From contig CAWETV010000001.1 of assembly GCA_963812095.1 (NCBI GenBank), positions 354,690 to 418,689 of the forward strand: a DNA stretch of 64,000 nucleotides. The letters are read 5' to 3'. Source of the stretch: an uncultured Acidobacteriota bacterium (GTDB taxonomy: Bacteria > Acidobacteriota > Terriglobia > Terriglobales > Acidobacteriaceae). The translations under genes were made by a program, and so were the position numbers. Below the pieces are notes generated by a model that was not told the origin of the DNA, did not search any database, and saw only the letters and a program-made list of their open reading frames with translations. This document shows, in pieces, positions 26,671 through 60,607 of this stretch (the stretch's first letter is position 1; the number at the start of each line of letters is the position of its first letter).

Positions 26671-26712
26671 TAGCTTCTAGCTCCTAGCTTCTAGCTGCTA
26701 GCTCCTGGCTCT
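26671..26712. repeat. Tandem heptamer array (TAGCTNC)x6
   Basis: tagcttc tagctcc tagcttc tagctgc tagctcc tggctct, starting 5 nt after the mdh stop. It is the inverted partner of the array at 26892-26936. Confidence 0.85.
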
Positions 26713-26891: not shown

Positions 26892-26936
26892 CTAGAGGCT
26901 AGAAGCTAGTAGCTAGAGGCTAGAAGCTGAAAGCTG
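26892..26936. repeat. Tandem heptamer array (CTAGNAG)x6
   Basis: ctagagg ctagaag ctagtag ctagagg ctagaag ctgaaag. Its reverse complement is (CTNCTAG)n, which matches the 26671-26712 array. It ends 10 nt before the phoU stop. Confidence 0.85.
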
Positions 26937-35305: not shown

Positions 35306-35325
35306 CTGATCTTTCCCTTTCTCTG

Positions 35326-35373
35326 CCCCTTGTTCCCTCAGTCCCTTGTTCCCTATTCCCTATTCCCTATTCT
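35326..35373. repeat. Intercistronic C3-tract heptamer array (CCCTATT family) between nuoH and nuoJ
   Basis: ccccttgtt ccctcagt cccttgtt ccctatt ccctatt ccctatt ctt. It abuts the nuoH stop at 35373. Confidence 0.85.
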
Positions 35374-43179: not shown

Positions 43180-43359
43180 GAGGGATGCCCCATCCAAGCC
43201 CGCCGCGGCGGGCTTGGGCGGGAAACCACAGAAGTCGGATGGGTGCCCCAGGTCTCGATTTTGAGACCTGGGAACCACCAAAGCTCACAGACGGTAGGGC
43301 TGGTTCTCCCACCACAAATGGGTGCCCCAGGTCTCGATTTTGAGACCTGGGAAACCACC
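43180..43359 (+). repeat. Three tandem REP-like hairpin units (~79-bp spacing), GGGTGCCCCA-box family
   Basis: Unit 1: GGGATGCCCCATCCAAGCCCGCCGCGGCGGGCTTGGGCGGGAAACCAC. Units 2 and 3: GGGTGCCCCAGGTCTCGATTTTGAGACCTGGGAA(A)CCACC, with the 10-bp perfect stem CCCAGGTCTC/GAGACCTGGG. Confidence 0.85.
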
Positions 43360-44397: not shown

Positions 44398-44859
44398 CTA
44401 GTTGATTCTATTCTTCCGGGTGGACTTCACAGTTTCACCGCCCGAAAAATGAACTTGCGAAGTGCAAGCCTGGAGCGGCGATTTCGAATCGTGAATCAGG
44501 GTACTGTGAGAATTAGCGGGGCTGGCGGAGTTGGCGGCTTTAGCGGAGTTAGCGGAGTTAGCGGAGTTGGCGGAATTAGCGGGGCTAGCGCGGTGAGCCT
44601 GGGGTTGCGAGGCGGCCAGGGTCTTTTCAGCCAGCTCGATTTGCGCCCGGCGGAGGTCGTCCATGGTCCGGAGCGGGGGGAAGGGCGACTTGATGACCCT
44701 GTTCACGATGGCAATCGATCCGTCGCGGCGAAGTCTCATGTTGGGCAGATTCTCGATGCAGAGCTGCACGATGGAGGAGAGGGAACAACCGCGCTCGGCA
44801 GCCCAGACGCGGGCGTTGCGATAGGCGTTTTCGCTGACGTGGACGGTGATGTTGGGCAT
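44398..44859 (-). CDS. Hypothetical protein: RHH (CopG/Arc)-like N-terminus with a low-complexity (ANS)n tail
   Basis: MPNITVHVSENAYRNARVWAAERGCSLSSIVQLCIENL fits a beta-strand/helix/helix RHH pattern. The middle region SPANSANSANSANSAKAANSASPANS is encoded by a 9-nt tandem repeat at 44524-44590. Coding status is uncertain. Confidence 0.4.
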   Translation of the reverse strand: MPNITVHVSENAYRNARVWAAERGCSLSSIVQLCIENLPNMRLRRDGSIAIVNRVIKSPFPPLRTMDDLRRAQIELAEKTLAASQPQAHRASPANSANSANSANSAKAANSASPANSHSTLIHDSKSPLQACTSQVHFSGGETVKSTRKNRIN

Positions 44860-45287: not shown

Positions 45288-46373
45288 TTATGCCATCGTC
45301 AGCGTCGGCCTCATCAAGCGCGGACCTTGATTCGAGAACTCCGGCGCATACAGCTTCGCGCATTCTTCCGGGAACAAATTCAAGAGTTGCGCCAAATCTT
45401 TCACATCATACCGAAGCTCTCTGATGTGTGCATTAACCAACTCGCCAAGTAGCGTTGGCCTCTCGATTGGGATGTCAAGCTCGGCTGGTTCCCGCACGTT
45501 GTAATGCAGCTTGCTGAAATTAATGCGCATGTATCGATGCTGCGTTGCGTTGATAGTTCCGAGTTGCTTGGCTCTCTCCAGCAACGCGCCCATCGACACC
45601 CTCCAAACTCCTTTGAGCAACGCCAAATGGGCCAGGCGGACATTTCTCAGTTGATGTCGTATTTCCGATTCCGGCATCAAAAATTCGGAGGCAAACCGAT
45701 TTGCCTCTTCTTCCATCTTTTCAGATGGAAAAGCGTGCATAATCAGGTGGCCAAGCTCATGTGCGAGGGTCCAACGGTAGCGGTCGCCCCCAACGCAGTC
45801 ATCGACATTCATGAGGATAAGCGGTTGATGGCCCGGTATCCACTCGCTCACTGCGTCTGTCCTGGTACTTCCGAATTTGTGCGTGACTATAATCACCCCC
45901 ACGTCCTCGACTGCGGCGGTGAGATTGTTCACCGGTCCCATTGGGAGGTGCAAGAGCGCACGCACCTGACGCGCGATGTTTTCGGGACTTCCAAAATCCT
46001 CGACGGACATGCGAATCAGTTCGATCTCCGGGGAAATGGATGCTGCCAGCATAAGGCGGCTCACCCGCATCCTCGTAAGGTTCAGAACGGCGTGGATGCG
46101 TCGTAGAGTCTTGGCTGGCATATCTGCGCGTTTCCGATGGAAGAAAACGGATGCATTAAACCCGAATATCCGATCCTCCTGGAACAAGAGACCCTTGGGA
46201 TACCTAAGAGCACTGGCAATCAATGAAACCTGGTCGTCATTGGGCTGCGTGATTCCTGCTTCAAACCGCGAGATCAGCGTTTGGGGAATCCTGGTAGTCA
46301 GCGAAAGATCTGATTGCGAGACCTCGCGAGACTCCCGCGCCAGCGTGAGCAGTCCTGCATTGAAATTTGGCAT
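45288..46373 (-). CDS. XRE-family HTH fused to an ImmA/IrrE (COG2856, M78-like) zinc metallopeptidase
   Basis: N-terminus: ..LTLARESREVSQSDLSLTTRIPQTLISRFEAGITQPNDDQV (HTH_XRE). Centre: WTLAHELGHLIMH (HExxH) followed by EEEANRFASEFLMPE, the ImmA/IrrE signature. GC is lower than the flanks (28/60 at 45661-45720). Confidence 0.85.
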   Translation of the reverse strand: MPNFNAGLLTLARESREVSQSDLSLTTRIPQTLISRFEAGITQPNDDQVSLIASALRYPKGLLFQEDRIFGFNASVFFHRKRADMPAKTLRRIHAVLNLTRMRVSRLMLAASISPEIELIRMSVEDFGSPENIARQVRALLHLPMGPVNNLTAAVEDVGVIIVTHKFGSTRTDAVSEWIPGHQPLILMNVDDCVGGDRYRWTLAHELGHLIMHAFPSEKMEEEANRFASEFLMPESEIRHQLRNVRLAHLALLKGVWRVSMGALLERAKQLGTINATQHRYMRINFSKLHYNVREPAELDIPIERPTLLGELVNAHIRELRYDVKDLAQLLNLFPEECAKLYAPEFSNQGPRLMRPTLTMA

Positions 46374-46377
46374 CTTT

Positions 46378-47145
46378 CTACTCGCTTGTGTTCGACAGCA
46401 GCTCTCTCTGGTCTGGGCCGCGCTTGATCCTGATTCGGGTTCGCGTTCTGAGACCGTCTACGATTTGCAACGGCATTTCCACAACCTTTGATCTGGCGGT
46501 GATCTTCTCCAATTCGATGTAAAACTGCAATTTTCCGCTGGAGTAAAATCGCTGAATCATCACGCTCGTAATATTTCTTAGGGCGTCGTCAGCTGTAAAG
46601 CCAAGAACGAACAGGGGCCTAGCCGGAGCAAATGTGAAACGTCCCTGCATCATCTCTAGTGCCGTCTCGGTTGGGTAATTGGAGGGAAATCCATCCTCGC
46701 CGAGCTGTTTATACCAAAAGACGCAGCCGCTAAACAGATGGTAGGTGGTGGAGTTCTTATCAAAGAATTCGGAGTCTCGAATACCAGCAAAGCGCTGACG
46801 GGCCTCGTCGATGACGTATCCATTCAGAACGTTTGCTGAGATTCGCGGATTGAACGGCAAACGAAGCTCCGCAGGAATCCGGTTATACGTGGCCAGCGCT
46901 GCTTCCGGTATCTCCCAGAAGAGATGCCGCACATTGCGGATTTTTGAAACTGTCCAGTCTTGCGAGCCGATTTCCCTCACCAGGAACTCCTTTCTTCTAA
47001 GATGACTATCGCACAATCGCGCAATTCGTGCAATAATTATTCTTAAATTATTCAGAAGGTGGCCCGGCCCTAACGGCGTTGAGAGCTCGTTCCCAACTGC
47101 ACTGGGTCCATCGCTGACGCCGTTAGCCCCGCTCATCCCGGGCAT
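46378..47145 (-). CDS. Hypothetical ~255-aa protein with no recognisable domain; candidate toxin or effector partner of the HTH-ImmA/IrrE gene
   Basis: Its stop TAG lies 4 nt before the downstream ATG, on the same strand. Low GC (23/60 at 46501-46560). Candidate ATG starts are 47145 and 47136. The track start 47220 runs into a high-GC REP-like sequence and is disfavoured. Confidence 0.6.
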   Translation of the reverse strand: MPGMSGANGVSDGPSAVGNELSTPLGPGHLLNNLRIIIARIARLCDSHLRRKEFLVREIGSQDWTVSKIRNVRHLFWEIPEAALATYNRIPAELRLPFNPRISANVLNGYVIDEARQRFAGIRDSEFFDKNSTTYHLFSGCVFWYKQLGEDGFPSNYPTETALEMMQGRFTFAPARPLFVLGFTADDALRNITSVMIQRFYSSGKLQFYIELEKITARSKVVEMPLQIVDGLRTRTRIRIKRGPDQRELLSNTSE

Positions 47146-47475
47146 TGGCGGGTGGTCGAGACTCTTCCCGCCCAAGCGAGCTTGGACGGGGCACCCCCGG
47201 AAGATTCTGTGGCTTTCCATCCTTCGCGCGAGATTTCCTCAGGGGCTAAAGCCCGCCCTTCTTTTGCGGGCTTAAGGCACCCTTCGGCTTCGCCCAGGGC
47301 AGGCTTTGAAGTCGTGCCCGTGGCTAAAGCCCGCGCAGAATCGGATGGCGTTATGCGGGGGTTGAAACCCCCGCCTCCCTCCATAGTTGGATGGGCTGTG
47401 GTGGTTTCCCAGGTGCCTCCGCCGCGGCGGACGAGGCACCTGGGGCACCCGTTTGTAGCGGTGAAATGCGCCTCG

Positions 47476-47504
47476 CTACGGGTAGATGCCGCGAATCTGC
47501 CCCC
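47476..47504 (-). pseudogene. Relic duplicate of the gdhA 3' terminus (..QIRGIYP*)
   Basis: The reverse complement GGG CAG ATT CGC GGC ATC TAC CCG TAG matches the real end GTG CAG ATT CGC GGG ATC TAT CCG TAA (47563-47591) at 24/28 nt. Within the seven aligned codons plus stop, all differences are synonymous. It is separated from the real end only by the heptamer array. Confidence 0.7.
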
Positions 47505-47566
47505 TCAGTCCCTGAGTCCCTATTCCCTATTCCCTATTCCCTATTCCCTGTTCCCTGTTCCCTTAC
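47501..47566. repeat. Tandem heptamer array (CCCTATT family), 9 units
   Basis: cccctcagt ccctgagt ccctatt ccctatt ccctatt ccctatt ccctgtt ccctgtt ccctta. The last unit contains the gdhA TAA. Confidence 0.9.
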
Positions 47567-48822
47567 GGATAGATCCCGCGAATCTGCACGGCTTCGGCTA
47601 CGCGGCCGATGCCGACCATGTTGGCGGCGATGCGCATGGGCACCTTGCGCTCCTCGTGCATCTTCACGACGTCGCGGAAGCTGGTCTTCATGACCCGCTC
47701 CAGCCGGTTGTAGATGTCCTGCGCCTCCCAGAAGAGGTGCGACTCATCCTGCACCCATTCGAAGTAAGAGACGGTGACGCCGCCCGCATTGCAGAGAATG
47801 TCGGGGATGATGAAAACTCCTTTGCTCTGGAGGAGGCGATCGGCCGCCGGATTCAGCGGGCCGTTGGCGGCCTCGGCGACGATGCGCGCGCGCACGCCGC
47901 CGGCGTTCCGTTCGTCGATGGCGTTTTCAAGAGCCGCCGGGACGAGGATGTCGCAATTCATGGTGAGCAGCTCGGCGTGCGAGATCTCCTCGCTCTCAGG
48001 GAATGCGCGCACGTGGCCGGTGAGCGCCTTCATGCGGATCAGCTCGGGAATATTGAGGCCGTTGCGGTTCAGGATGGCGGTGGCCGAGTCGCAGACGGCG
48101 ATGACTTTGGCGCCCGCGTCGTGAAGCATCTGCGCCGTCACTGAGCCGGCATTGCCGAATCCCTGCACGGCCACGGTGGCGCCCTTGAGCGGCGTCTTCA
48201 GGTGCTCGCAGGCGCATTCGATGGTGTAAAAAACCCCGCGCCCGGTGGCCTCATTGCGTCCCAGTGACCCGCCCAGGCTGATGGGCTTGCCGGTGACCAC
48301 GCCGGGAATTGCATAGCCCTTGGTCATCGAGTAGGTGTCCATGATCCAGGCCATGGTCTGCGAGTTTGTGTAGACGTCGGGCGCGGGAATGTCCTGCTCG
48401 GGGCCGATGAGGGGAAGGATGGCGCTGGTGAAACGCCGCGTCATCCGCTCGAGCTCGACTCTCGACATGCTCTTGGGGTCGCATGTGATGCCGCCCTTGG
48501 CGCCGCCGAAGGGGATGTTCACGACTGCGCACTTCCAGGTCATCCAGGTGGCCAGGGCTTTGACCTCATCGAGCGTCACCTGGGGGTGGTAGCGGATGCC
48601 GCCCTTGGCCGGCCCGCGCACCGAGCTGTGCTGCACGCGATACCCCTCGAAGCGGTGGATATGCCCGGTTTCCATCCGCACCGGGACAGAGACCGTAAGC
48701 ATGCGCTCGGGATACTTGATCATCTCTCGAATGTCAGGATCCAACTCCAGCGCATTGGCCGCGGTATCGAAGTTCTCCATGGCCACGTCGTAAGCATTGC
48801 CAGTACTCTTTGTCTCAAGCAT
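47563..48822 (-). CDS. gdhA: Glutamate dehydrogenase (Glu/Leu/Phe/Val dehydrogenase family)
   Basis: ..RFEGYRVQHSSVRGPAKGGIRYHP.VTLDEVKALATWMTWKCAVVNIPFGGAKGGI.CDP....VAVQGFGNAGS. ATG 48822 is preceded by GAAGGAGA. Confidence 0.95.
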   Translation of the reverse strand: MLETKSTGNAYDVAMENFDTAANALELDPDIREMIKYPERMLTVSVPVRMETGHIHRFEGYRVQHSSVRGPAKGGIRYHPQVTLDEVKALATWMTWKCAVVNIPFGGAKGGITCDPKSMSRVELERMTRRFTSAILPLIGPEQDIPAPDVYTNSQTMAWIMDTYSMTKGYAIPGVVTGKPISLGGSLGRNEATGRGVFYTIECACEHLKTPLKGATVAVQGFGNAGSVTAQMLHDAGAKVIAVCDSATAILNRNGLNIPELIRMKALTGHVRAFPESEEISHAELLTMNCDILVPAALENAIDERNAGGVRARIVAEAANGPLNPAADRLLQSKGVFIIPDILCNAGGVTVSYFEWVQDESHLFWEAQDIYNRLERVMKTSFRDVVKMHEERKVPMRIAANMVGIGRVAEAVQIRGIYP

Positions 48823-48991
48823 TCGTTTTCTCCTTCTTGCCTGAGGAAAGGGCCGCTGCCTGCGCCCCACCCTGGCGGCAAAAAGTCGCCGCGCGGCGAC
48901 ACGCCGCGAGGATGGGGCGCCCCGAGAATCGGGCGCAATTCGCCTCCTCAGGCAAAACTTGCTTCAGCGGATTCCGTCGCCCCTACGGGGC

Positions 48992-50011
48992 TTACGCAAT
49001 CTCCTGTGTTGTTCCCAGGACTTCGTCCTGGGCTAACTTCCTGGCTCCCTCCGGGAGCCGCTCTGCCCTTCTCCGCCCATCTCCGTACACCGGCAAAAGC
49101 CATTTGCGATATGCCGCCATGCGCCCGCGCGTAGCGTCGACGTAAATCTGCCTCAGCCGGCGGGTGAGGGCGCCGATCTGGCCGTCGCGGACGGGCCGGT
49201 GATCGACGCGCACAACCGGCGCGACGCCGACCGCGGTGCCGGTAAGAAACAGCTCGTCGGCAACGTAAAGTTCGCTGCGGCCGATGGGCCGCTCCACAAG
49301 CGGCAGCCCCAGCTCGCGTGAAGCCAGCTCCATCACGCAGTCGCGCGTGATGCCTTCGAGCACGTTCTCATTGAGGGGCGGCGTGACCAGCCTGCCCTTG
49401 CGCACCATGAAAACGTTGCACGTGGAGCCTTCGGCCACGGTGCCGTTTTCGTTCAGCATGATGGCCTCGTCGAAGCCGCTGCGCCTGGCGTCATCGCTGG
49501 CCAGCGCGCTGTTCACGTAAGAGCCGCAGATTTTGCCCCGAGGCGGAATGGCATTGTCTTGAATGCGCCGCCAGTTGCTCACGCCAGCGTGCAGGCCGTT
49601 CTCAGAGTGGATGTACTCGCCGAAGGGCAGGGCCACAATGGCCCAGGAGTTGCGCTCATCGGGGCTGACGCCGATGCGCTCGGCGCTTTTGAAGGCGATG
49701 GGCCGCACGTAGAGATCGGTGCGGAAGCCGTTGCGCCGCATCAGATCCAGAGTGATTTCGCAAAGCTCTTCGGCCGAGTGCGGAAGCTCAATGTGCAGGA
49801 TGCCGCAGTTTTGCCGCCAGCGCTCGTAATGTTCCAACGGGCGCAGAACGTACAGCTCCTGCGCGGCCTCGTCCCAGTTGGCGCGGATCCCCTCAAAGAC
49901 ACCTGTCCCGTAATGCAGAGCGTGGGTAAGGATTCCGATGCGCGCTTCGTGGAGTGGTATGTACTCGCCGTTCAAGTTGACGGTCAGATTCGGATCGACA
50001 TCCGTCTTCAT
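48992..50011 (-). CDS. ilvE: Branched-chain amino acid aminotransferase
   Basis: ..LHYGTGVFEGIRA.......RL..S.......PFG.Y.......N.A.P...K..G.Y.NS.LA...A...G.DEAI.LN..G.V.EG...N.F.V..G...TPP....LEGITR. ATG 50011 is preceded by GGGGAGG. The last ~25 codons run through REP-like hairpins (49014-49059). Confidence 0.9.
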   Translation of the reverse strand: MKTDVDPNLTVNLNGEYIPLHEARIGILTHALHYGTGVFEGIRANWDEAAQELYVLRPLEHYERWRQNCGILHIELPHSAEELCEITLDLMRRNGFRTDLYVRPIAFKSAERIGVSPDERNSWAIVALPFGEYIHSENGLHAGVSNWRRIQDNAIPPRGKICGSYVNSALASDDARRSGFDEAIMLNENGTVAEGSTCNVFMVRKGRLVTPPLNENVLEGITRDCVMELASRELGLPLVERPIGRSELYVADELFLTGTAVGVAPVVRVDHRPVRDGQIGALTRRLRQIYVDATRGRMAAYRKWLLPVYGDGRRRAERLPEGARKLAQDEVLGTTQEIA

Positions 50012-54479: not shown

Positions 54480-54521
54480 CACTATTCCCTATTCCCTATT
54501 CCCTATTCCCTGATCCCTGCC
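54480..54521. repeat. Tandem heptamer array (CCCTATT)x~6 in a divergent promoter region
   Basis: cactatt ccctatt ccctatt ccctatt ccctgat ccctgcc. It is preceded by the hairpin GGTGCCCCACCC..GGGGTGGGG (54429-54457). Confidence 0.85.
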
Positions 54522-54556
54522 TGCTGACCAGTCTAGTCTAGAATTGGGAACCAGGC

Positions 54557-55567
54557 ATGATTCTTCATCTCATCGCCGCTCGCAGCGGCTTGTTTGCAGA
54601 AGGCCGTTTTCTCGGCAAGGTCCTCGACGAGTGGGGCGCCGATGCGCAGGAGTTCGTCCGCCTTCGCCTGCCGCACCTCGTGGTTGTGGCTCTGATCGCT
54701 TTTCTTCTTGCCAGGTTGCTCCGCGTCATTACCCGCCACATGGTGAGCGCCGCCGAGAAGCACGCCGTCGGCGCCGGCCGCGCGGCTCAAGTGAAAACGA
54801 TCGCCGGAGTCATCCGCGCCACCGGCCTGGCCGTCATCGGCGTCATCGCCGGGCTGCAGTTTCTCGATGCCCTCGGATTCAACCTCGGCCCCCTGCTGGC
54901 CTCGGCCGGAATTGCCGGCGTCGCCATTGGCCTGGCGGCGCAGAACATCGTCCGCGACATGCTCAACGGCATTCTCATTCTCATCGAAGGCCAGTTCAGC
55001 GTGGGCGACACGGTGCGCCTGGCCGGCGTCGCAGGCGTCGTCGAAGAGATGACCCTGCGCCGCACCGCCGTTCGCGACGCCGACGGCACGCTCTACGTCA
55101 TTCCCAACTCGCAGATCACCACCGTAGCCAACCTGAGCGCCGGCTACTCGGTCTCCAGCGTGAACATCAGCGCGGATTTCTCGGCCGACCCCGATCGGAC
55201 GACGCAACTGCTCCGCGAGATCGCCATGGAGGTGCGCACGAGCGACGCCTTCCGCGACATCTTCGTCGAGGACCCGAAGGTCCTGGGCATGGATGCGATC
55301 AAGGGCTCGCAACTGGTCTTCCCGGTGATCTTCAAGACGCAAGCCAACCAGCAGTACGGCCCTGTGCGCGAGTTCCAGCGGCGGGTGCGGCTGGCCTTCG
55401 AGCAGAACGGCATTTTGCCCGGCGACCCCGGCCGCATTTTCAACGCCTTTGGCGAGAAACCGGGCGATGGAGTTCCGGCCCGGAATCCATCTCACGAGGA
55501 ACCTGCCGCCGCGCACGATCCGACCGCTGTCAAGCCGCACGAGGGGAATCCGTTCAGCGGGGAGTAG
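54557..55567 (+). CDS. Mechanosensitive ion channel (MscS family)
   Basis: ..LGPLLASAGIAGVAIGLAAQNIVRDMLNGILILIEGQFSVGDTVRLAGV.GVVEEMTLRRT.VRD.DGTLYVIPNS.I. Confidence 0.9.
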   Translation: MILHLIAARSGLFAEGRFLGKVLDEWGADAQEFVRLRLPHLVVVALIAFLLARLLRVITRHMVSAAEKHAVGAGRAAQVKTIAGVIRATGLAVIGVIAGLQFLDALGFNLGPLLASAGIAGVAIGLAAQNIVRDMLNGILILIEGQFSVGDTVRLAGVAGVVEEMTLRRTAVRDADGTLYVIPNSQITTVANLSAGYSVSSVNISADFSADPDRTTQLLREIAMEVRTSDAFRDIFVEDPKVLGMDAIKGSQLVFPVIFKTQANQQYGPVREFQRRVRLAFEQNGILPGDPGRIFNAFGEKPGDGVPARNPSHEEPAAAHDPTAVKPHEGNPFSGE

Positions 55568-55601
55568 GGGCGGCGCATCGGTTGACCCCACGCAGAAATT
55601 C

Positions 55602-56285
55602 CTAAGGCATGCGATTGAGCTGTGCAGCGAGCTTTTTCATGGCTGCATTTTCGCGGGTAACTTCGCCAGTCTCTCGACTGTGCAAAGCGATCTCTGCGGC
55701 GATTGAGCGACCGAGAATTCGCTGGTCAATATTGCCAAACGACCCAGGCACGAGGCTTCCGAACCAACCGACCCAGGCCGGGGTGTGGGCGTTGCCGGCA
55801 ATGATGCCGGGGCGAAAGATGGCGAGGCGGGTAAAACCGACCTTGCGCACGGTGTCTTCCTTCATGCCCATGATTCGCGCATAGCGAATCCGGCTGCGAG
55901 TTGAGCTGCCAGCCGCAGAAAGCAGGCAAAACTGGGCGATTCCGGCCTCATGGCAGCCACGCGCAAAGGCACCGACGACGCCGAGCTCAAGCTGTTTCAA
56001 TTCTTCTTCGCTCCAGCGCATCGATCCGGACCCAACACCCACACAGCTCACGGCGCTGGCGGGACCTTGGCTTATAACTTCGCGGGCAAGGGCGGCAGTG
56101 CGCTCGGCAAAGTCAGCAGCGCCGGTATCAAGAACGACGTTGCGCACCCGCGATCGCGGCGCAATGGGCTTTCTGGTGACCATCACCACTTCCCGGCATT
56201 CGGAAGTTGCCAGCAGTTCTGCGACGGCTGCACCGCCGACTTGTCCGGTACCGCCAAGGATCATTACGGCGAAATTCTGCTCCAC
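55602..56285 (-). CDS. NAD(P)-binding Rossmann-fold oxidoreductase (atypical SDR/HTATIP2-like)
   Basis: AVMILGGTGQVGGAAVAELL...VVMVTRKP is the N-terminal GxxGxxG. GTG start at 56285; an alternative ATG lies at 56264. Confidence 0.7.
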   Translation of the reverse strand: MEQNFAVMILGGTGQVGGAAVAELLATSECREVVMVTRKPIAPRSRVRNVVLDTGAADFAERTAALAREVISQGPASAVSCVGVGSGSMRWSEEELKQLELGVVGAFARGCHEAGIAQFCLLSAAGSSTRSRIRYARIMGMKEDTVRKVGFTRLAIFRPGIIAGNAHTPAWVGWFGSLVPGSFGNIDQRILGRSIAAEIALHSRETGEVTRENAAMKKLAAQLNRMP

Positions 56286-60550: not shown

Positions 60551-60607
60551 GGGATCAGGGACTAAGGGACTAAGGGACTAAGGGACTAAGGGACTGAGGG
60601 ACTAAGC
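60551..60607. repeat. Tandem octamer array (GGGACTAA)x~7
   Basis: gggatca gggactaa gggactaa gggactaa gggactaa gggactga gggactaa. The last unit contains the TAG stop of the GNAT gene. Confidence 0.9.

Follow-up and report, generated by a model that had tools for sequence, protein, structure and literature searches.

A 64-kb stretch of DNA from an Acidobacteriaceae (Terriglobales) bacterium, referred to here as the window (and its lineage as W), contains a gene whose end is present twice. The gene is gdh (47563..48822, minus strand), recognized from the list of open reading frames (ORFs) and from Pfam matches to PF02812 and PF00208 as coding for a 419-aa Glu/Leu/Phe/Val dehydrogenase, and its last eight codons recur, untranslated, on the far side of a G-rich tandem array that begins at the base immediately after the TAA stop codon. 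We lean towards the view that this duplication is a one-off scar, left by an out-of-register crossover at microhomology between an array-bearing and an array-less allele of gdh.

The 3' end of gdh as printed is GCAGATTCGCGGGATCTATCCGTAA, with the codons GTG CAG ATT CGC GGG ATC TAT CCG TAA. Read along the minus strand, the translated terminus (T', GCAG ATT CGC GGG ATC TAT CCG TAA, 47587..47563) is followed by the array (62 nt, 47562..47501) and then by the untranslated second terminus, which we call the relic (T, GCAGATTCGCGGCATCTACCCGTAG, i.e. GCAG ATT CGC GGC ATC TAC CCG TAG, 47500..47476). An earlier, sequence-only reading of this DNA had described the terminus duplicated around the array as we find it, but it gave the match as 24/28, one more than the 23/28 that we count (22/25 over T' and T themselves, and 23/27 over a slightly longer span), and it took the array for 58 nt of (CCCTATT)n, whereas it comprises 62 nt of mixed heptamers and octamers. 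The statement that all differences within the aligned codons are synonymous holds for the eight codons Q-I-R-G-I-Y-P-stop, in which GGG/GGC, TAT/TAC and TAA/TAG are all silent (3/3), but fails for the ninth, where GTG on the side of T' faces GGG on the side of T, a non-silent difference that marks the limit of the duplication. QIRGIYP-stop is fully preserved in the relic, and each of the two copies is 1-2 nt away from the termini of real genes in relatives; T' is 1 nt apart from the termini found in two of the relatives discussed below, lineages D (locus L092) and E (L093/L094).

The match between T' and T is beyond chance. The flank-to-flank score at the gdh array is 18, compared with a mean of 6.7, a standard deviation of 1.3 and a maximum of 17 in a null distribution of 3,000 random placements, and a degenerate 25-mer with at most 3 mismatches occurs exactly twice in the 64 kb and not at all in 100 shuffles. 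The restriction of the differences to silent ones has a probability of p=0.013 if the changes are random (0.236^3) and of 0.056 under in-place duplication with one constrained copy. As for the gene itself, an AAGGAG ribosome-binding site precedes the ATG at 48822, the product is 97% identical at the aa level to P0001, and the tail RG(I/L)(Y/F)P hardly varies among the 80 gdh loci compared. Exact-protein matches that would reveal genomes of the same species were sought for gdh (with two possible starts), for the neighbouring aminotransferase and for an oxidoreductase subunit, and none was found.

Within the sequence surveyed, the duplication is unique. The survey of arrays covered the window and 85 related loci (635 kb) and provided 21 testable arrays of period 7-8, including that of gdh. 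Flanking duplicates were found at none of the other arrays in the window (0/11, with flank scores of 6-9, not above background) and at none of the other 7-8-nt arrays in the window and the related loci taken together (0/20). A copy of the last 25 nt situated no more than 200 nt downstream of the end of a long ORF was detected for gdh alone among 1,441 ends; two further ORF-end matches, in L081 and L064, were discarded because they represent a REP-like (repetitive extragenic palindrome) element and a 115-nt tandem repeat rather than gene termini. No second gdh terminus was seen in any of about 80 orthologous loci from species-representative genomes, nor in six closer metagenome loci, about 90 loci altogether, and a search of the JGI metagenomes with the degenerate terminus-gap-terminus pattern (with a gap of 40-70 nt) returned 0 matches.

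Our argument rests mainly on the comparison with D and E, because the statistics of the silent pattern are modest. In lineage D, whose gdh is 93.2% identical to that of the window at the nucleotide level over the last 398 nt, the gene ends in CGC GGA ATC TAT CCG TAA GGGAACAGGGA GGGAC GGCGAGAG CAGGCGGCAC ... TTCACCACAACAGAT GGGTGCCCCAGGTGCC. It has a terminus of the T' type and shares with the window the junction of TAA with GGGAACAGGGA, the first 11 nt of the array being common to both, but it bears only a seed of the window type of array, about 1.5 units vs 8, and no relic. In lineage E (gdh 92.7% identical overall and 96-99% over the last ~350 nt) the end reads CGC GGG ATC TAT CCG TAG CAGGCGGCGC..., and a (CACAGTTT)n array is found after the stop, with neither a G-rich array nor a relic. 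In a three-way alignment, homologous sequence of the form AG|C(A/G)GGCG...TTCAC(C) directly follows the stop in E, the seed in D and the TAG of the relic in the window. On account of this homology, the context of the relic can be recognized as the sequence that natively follows the stop in an array-less haplotype. The flank (CGAGGCGCAT TTCACCGCTACAAAC, 47451..47475, minus strand) contains GTAGCG/CGCTAC, a small predicted hairpin, and the same REP-like hairpin then follows in the window and in D (in the window GGGTGCCCCAGGTGCCTC...GAGGCACCTGGGAAACC, 47403..47449, identified as an inverted repeat and by folding); according to the fold prediction, it is likely to be the 3' structure of the gdh transcript. 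T' and the array, on the other hand, form one haplotype block, as the shared junction indicates. In this broad sense the suggestion of the sequence-only reading that a replacement terminus was carried in by inserted DNA is borne out, with T' and the array belonging to one haplotype and the relic lying in an array-less flank.

The comparison of D with E also suggests that the old stop codon was interrupted by the array seed (T|AAGGG...GAG|AG); in that case, TAA/TAG would have come with the array and would not count as a substitution of its own. Parsimony with distant outgroups gave an ambiguous answer as to which copy is ancestral, TAT/TAC and TAA/TAG both being common in the family. We also considered the last 64 nt of gdh as an import from a distant source, as they are 95% identical to L009 vs 80-83% to lineages A and B (Fisher p=3e-8); this idea was dropped, since, as D and E show, the nearest relatives have this type of terminus natively, and A and B carry changes of their own.

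We propose the following scenario. Two alleles of the gdh 3' end would be circulating in a recombining group of Acidobacteriaceae: an array-bearing one, in which the stop runs straight into the array (...TAT CCG TAA-GGGAACA...GGGAC..G.GCAG-GCGGC), as in D, and an array-less one (...GT GCAG ATT CGC GGC ATC TAC CCG TAG CGAGGCGCAT TTCACC), of the type of E and B. A crossover would have led from the end of the array region into the array-less allele, entering the latter 25 nt ahead of its stop, at GCAG or at 5/6 bases of GNGCAG (...G.GCAG|GCGGC onto GT GCAG|ATT CGC). GCAG is found both after the seed of D (GAGAGCAGGCGGC), with D only a stand-in for the parent, and at codons 411-412 of gdh (GTGCAGATT). 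Most probably, DNA entering the cell would have found its anchor in gdh and recombined by the homology-facilitated illegitimate route. In the product, gdh would remain intact by virtue of T', an intact end being needed because the tail ...RGIYP is invariant, and the last eight codons of the array-less allele would stay in the 3' untranslated region as the relic, which would keep its native flank and hairpin. Such a crossover would explain why the repeat starts at GCAG and why the space between T' and T is taken up by the array and nothing else, and likewise why the relic is a perfect QIRGIYP-stop with silent differences only and a native flank. The parents it predicts are gdh-TAC CCG TAG-CGAGGCGCATTTCACC (array-less) and gdh-TAA-long array-GCAGGCGGC (array-bearing). 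The duplication with its uniqueness, the T' and array seed in common with D, the homologous flanks and the mixed ancestry of the locus are direct observations; from them we infer where the crossover lay, that it used this microhomology, which way the DNA was transferred and that it passed between cells.

The locus as a whole is a mosaic. Lineages A (L081-84, gdh 93.9% identical at the nucleotide level) and B (L085-87 and L095, 88%) provide the wider context: after the stop, A has no array, only REP-like elements and a gene with a weak Pfam match to Y1 transposases, and B has a (CAGTTGN)5 array and, downstream, the two-gene cassette that is also present in the window. The genes of the 2-oxoacid:ferredoxin oxidoreductase (POR), upstream of gdh, exhibit baseline identities (W-A 88-89%, W-B 88%), whereas in the adjoining branched-chain aminotransferase W-A falls to 74% while W-B is 86%. 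Within gdh, W-A reaches 96% at positions 1-1130 and W-E 96-99% in the last ~350 nt, against a genome baseline of ~88%. The downstream cassette, which encodes a 200-aa protein and an HTH/Peptidase_M78 protein, is common to the window and B only (88.5%) and absent from A and D, and synteny among the lineages breaks precisely at the gdh stop. The flanks of the joint also differ in ancestry: to its left, gdh is A/E-like and T' with the seed D-like, and to its right the relic is of the B type (TAC CCG TAG CG). Exchange of tracts of gdh size and smaller between lineages is thus demonstrable, and a joint at the end of the gene is plausible.

The cassette (45288-46980) is low in GC (50-56%); its 200-aa protein is without a known domain, and its second gene codes for an HTH_3/Peptidase_M78 protein resembling ImmA/IrrE. 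It is found 3' of gdh in B and, elsewhere, 3' of a peroxiredoxin (AhpC-family) gene beside ParDE, and because it occurs after gdh in the one case and after the peroxiredoxin gene in other lineages, it appears to be mobile. We considered it as the carrier of the relic and rejected this, as the copies that follow the peroxiredoxin gene in other lineages lack a gdh-like end.

The array of gdh has the structure (GGGAACA)2 (GGGAATA)4 (GGGACTCA)(GGGACTGA) GGGG, i.e. six heptamers and two octamers, with the G-rich strand in the sense orientation; Tandem Repeats Finder reports 6.7 copies at 47517-47563. Its nine G3+ tracts fit the G-quadruplex motif, and G-quadruplex-aware folding of the array alone (-15.6 kcal/mol with quadruplexes allowed vs -4.9 kcal/mol without them) predicts two three-layer quadruplexes, so that it can be regarded as a predicted G-quadruplex former. 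Arrays of the general form GGGA-N3-4 are present at five places in the 64-kb window and only once, as a tiny array, in 570 kb of relatives. In most of them the heptamers are proximal to the stop and the octamers distal, while the array at 60551-60600 is made up nearly entirely of octamers. Those at 35327 and 37208 are likewise located 3' of the stops of adjoining long minus-strand ORFs, as is that at 54487 if the ORF 54533-55636 (minus strand) is a real gene; the one at 60551 is flanked by two minus-strand ORFs, and its G-rich strand, the plus strand, is antisense to both.

The nuo operon allows for comparison with a further relative, lineage C (L091, a locus that does not include gdh), which is present, as are lineages A, B, D and E, among Danish and peat samples. 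Three arrays, those of the nuoB-C, nuoC-D and nuoD-I spacers, occupy orthologous sites in the window and in C and differ in the numbers and types of their units; in the nuoD-I spacer, an octamer block that is common with C has been extended in the window by (GGGAATA)3 on the side nearest the stop. The nuoA-B array is kept in B and C. In the nuoH-nuoJ spacer (window 35306-35372) a 56-nt G-rich array is found where C is empty, with 12 nt only (TAAGGAGGATTGCCGATG, L091 9457-9468), and there is no target duplication. Since the nuo sites are orthologous in C and hold different units, these alignments indicate that the arrays persist at fixed post-stop sites and alter in place, which is seen at four nuo sites and never with a duplicated target. 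The opposite claim, made in the sequence-only reading, that each array comes in as a separate insertion instead of growing by slippage in place is contradicted by the 1.5 units in D vs 8 in the window and by the three nuo arrays that vary at orthologous sites. As a separate observation, the nuoH-nuoJ array in the window stands in place of a GGAG ribosome-binding site, and the next gene has GTG rather than ATG as its start codon.

Returning to the proposed crossover between gdh alleles, several points weigh against it. The microhomology would be only 4-5 nt long and is taken from D, which here stands in for the parent. There are just 2-3 informative differences between the copies, given that TAA/TAG may have come with the array seed, and the silent-only pattern is weak evidence at p=0.013 (random changes) or 0.056 (in-place duplication). 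Homology-facilitated illegitimate recombination usually deletes DNA of the recipient rather than duplicating it. The 1.41-Mb contig from which the window was taken possibly belongs to a metagenome-assembled genome, to judge from its size and its NCBI/ENA sources. Finally, an array-less allele with the exact relic and flank was not recovered: a scan of JGI metagenome DNA for the sequence of the relic with its flank gave 0 matches, and ENA contigs were covered by way of their proteins.

The alternatives differ in when and how the second terminus would have been placed beyond the array. An old duplication, T'-array-T already in the common ancestor of W and D with later loss of the relic from D by deletion or replacement, is unlikely. 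It agrees with T' and the array seed being common to both, and the spacer of D has nearly the required length (36 nt, as compared to 35 nt for the relic plus 10 nt) and a weak gapped similarity to the relic (GCAG..CGGCA). However, this similarity is not significant (p=0.23-0.33), and as local alignment of the spacer with the relic is no better than with shuffles (p=0.23), we rejected the notion that the spacer is a decayed relic. A neutral 25-nt relic of that age should also bear at least two changes, three quarters of them non-silent, whereas T is a perfect consensus terminus; the divergence between the window and D amounts to 6.8% of gdh sites and about 4/15 flank sites. Copying in place within the window lineage, with slippage or a template switch putting the last 25 nt of gdh itself beyond the array and divergence following, would be the simplest mechanism confined to a single genome; GCAG would suit a template switch as well, and G-rich arrays can stall replication. 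Nonetheless, we judge it quite improbable: the path from TAT..TAA to GGC/TAC/TAG takes three changes, in an unconstrained copy, all of which would have to be silent by chance (0.013), a tandem duplication would have copied the array too, and the flank 3' of the relic differs from that of D. The possibility that an assembler concatenated two strain haplotypes, with and without the array, is suggested by the resemblance of the two copies to two alleles, by the possible metagenomic origin of the source contig and by the short-read contigs of relatives (L082, L083) that break exactly at the end of gdh. We hold this to be very improbable, as the 4-5 nt at the junction are far too short for a path switch in a k-mer or overlap graph and all the other arrays of the window, with their flanks, are coherent and match the relatives.

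Two further alternatives invoke mobile DNA. The sequence-only reading had proposed a target duplication generated by insertion of the array, and a small mobile unit with a target-site duplication of ~25 nt would indeed explain the direct repeats that abut the array exactly and the presence of GGGA-N3-4 arrays, heptamers followed by octamers, at five sites in 64 kb. This explanation is already largely refuted, and we give it hardly any credence. Flanking repeats are absent from all 20 other arrays, including the 11 in the window, and from the nuoH-nuoJ site, for which the filled and empty states can be compared; D bears the seed at the same site without a duplication; the two repeats are not identical; no transposase is adjacent according to the Pfam scan; the edges of the arrays are degenerate and differ among sites; and arrays at orthologous sites vary in place. 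An absence of flanking duplications at other arrays had been named by that reading as the observation that would speak against it, and this is what we found in all the sequence reached. A remnant of a site-specific integrative element, inserted at the 3' end of gdh with a replacement terminus between attL and attR and since shrunk to 62 nt, would match the typical layout, in which a working terminus lies upstream of the displaced one and the two differ silently, and the region 3' of gdh does vary by lineage and includes the low-GC cassette. It is nevertheless extremely unlikely: no integrase or recombinase was detected by the Pfam scan among nine ORFs of at least 150 aa within 8 kb downstream, no third copy of the terminus is present in the 47 kb downstream or elsewhere in the window, the cassette is found in other places without a gdh-like end, and only a 62-nt repeat array, with a shorter version in D, separates the copies. 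A diversity-generating retroelement was rejected as well, as the differences (G/C, T/C, A/G) are not confined to adenines and no reverse transcriptase was found by Pfam among the nine downstream ORFs. Support for an explanation of the locus by a known RNA was sought, and none was found.

Some features of the neighbourhood deserve mention in their own right. The aminotransferase gene (48992-50011, minus strand) is a second case of a displaced terminus, without a restored copy: its C-terminus is remodelled (window 48948-49090), so that after ...VPVY it continues with 30 new residues ending in QEIA*, passing through an inserted stretch with small hairpins, whereas in A, B and E the protein ends in ...AEASFA*. 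The ancestral end (GCTGAAGCAAGTTTTGCCTGA) persists untranslated 23 nt past the new stop. The REP-like hairpin family (GGGTGCCCCAGGT...ACCTGGGAAACC) is represented in the window at 43239-43274, 43318-43353 and 47403-47449, in A at L081 5930-5970 and in D at L092 466-505 and 533-565; the copies in A and D lie a few hundred nt from a gene with a weak match to the Y1-transposase family (PF01797), which could be a REP-associated transposase. Heptamer arrays of one family, (TAGCTYC)n at 26671-26711 and (GCTAGAR)n at 26892-26935, are reverse complements of each other, inverted around ~180 nt and situated between two convergent genes, and similar pairs occur 3' of gdh in L007/L033 and in E. A 9-nt tandem array (TTAGCGGAG, x8.7, 44513-44590) lies inside or beside a 153-aa ORF without a Pfam match (44398-44859, minus strand), and a (TCAGTTC)7 array directly adjoins it at the start of this ORF.

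If the duplication arose by the proposed crossover, gdh would provide a resolved case of a short untranslated pseudo-terminus arising beside a repeat array, in which the conserved C-terminal tail of the enzyme would act as a filter of the rearrangements that survive. The 25-nt direct repeats may also make loss of the array reversible, as a deletion between the copies would restore an intact, array-free gdh. The heptamer and octamer arrays of this Acidobacteriaceae group, with their fixed sites and changes in place, bear on the question of how such arrays originate. It is tempting to speculate that G-quadruplex-type arrays are preferred points of breakage and joining in exchange between strains and move with the end of the gene as a block. 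We regard this generalization as very doubtful, but if it were true, one would expect array-linked replacement of 3' ends that sometimes leaves displaced termini behind, with gdh as the first visible example.

With respect to known systems, the proposed event comes closest in setting to homology-facilitated illegitimate recombination, which was reportedly described in naturally transformable bacteria in 2002 by de Vries and Wackernagel and by Prudhomme et al. The same term is also used in PMC6382021. As in that process, there would be an anchor of homology on one side and a G+C-rich microhomology of a few bases on the other, and non-homologous DNA would come to lie beside resident sequence. 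In contrast to it, the partners here would be alleles of one gene, and the outcome, which we read from sequence alone, is a 25-nt duplication instead of the usual deletion. Integrative elements that insert at the 3' ends of genes (tRNA, tmRNA and some protein genes) carry a replacement end and are bounded by attL/attR repeats. The gdh locus resembles them in having an intact gene with a new end, the old end shortly downstream and differences that are neutral with respect to the product, but it lacks an integrase, an element body and additional copies, and none of the other arrays is arranged like it.

Intergenic heptanucleotide repeats are known as the short tandemly repeated repetitive (STRR) sequences of cyanobacteria and as TAACTGA in Beggiatoaceae (PMC4679880). 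The arrays of the window are similar to them in being abundant in short intergenic spacers and in abutting start or stop codons, while the units differ; that study weighs spread by mobile elements and shows no duplication of a terminus. The closest counterparts of the array itself are the G-rich heptamer repeats able to form G-quadruplexes, GGGAATC in Xanthomonas and GGGGA(C/T)T in Nostoc (Rehm et al. 2015, PMC4692102), for which no flanking copy of a gene end was reported. Our array differs in its unit, GGGAAYA with octamers (GGGACTNA) after it, and in being hosted by a member of the Acidobacteriaceae, and its quadruplex is a predicted one. On the other hand, the gdh array shares with this class the 7-nt units with a G3 tract, the presence of at least four such tracts, the non-coding position (for the class, sense within 50 bp after a stop, as at gdh, or antisense upstream) and the conserved site with varying copy number and unit, as seen in the seed of D and in the nuo spacers of C. 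We therefore regard the gdh array as an ordinary member of this known class that has lengthened in place, and the duplicated terminus around it as a new instance rather than a new mobile element or system.

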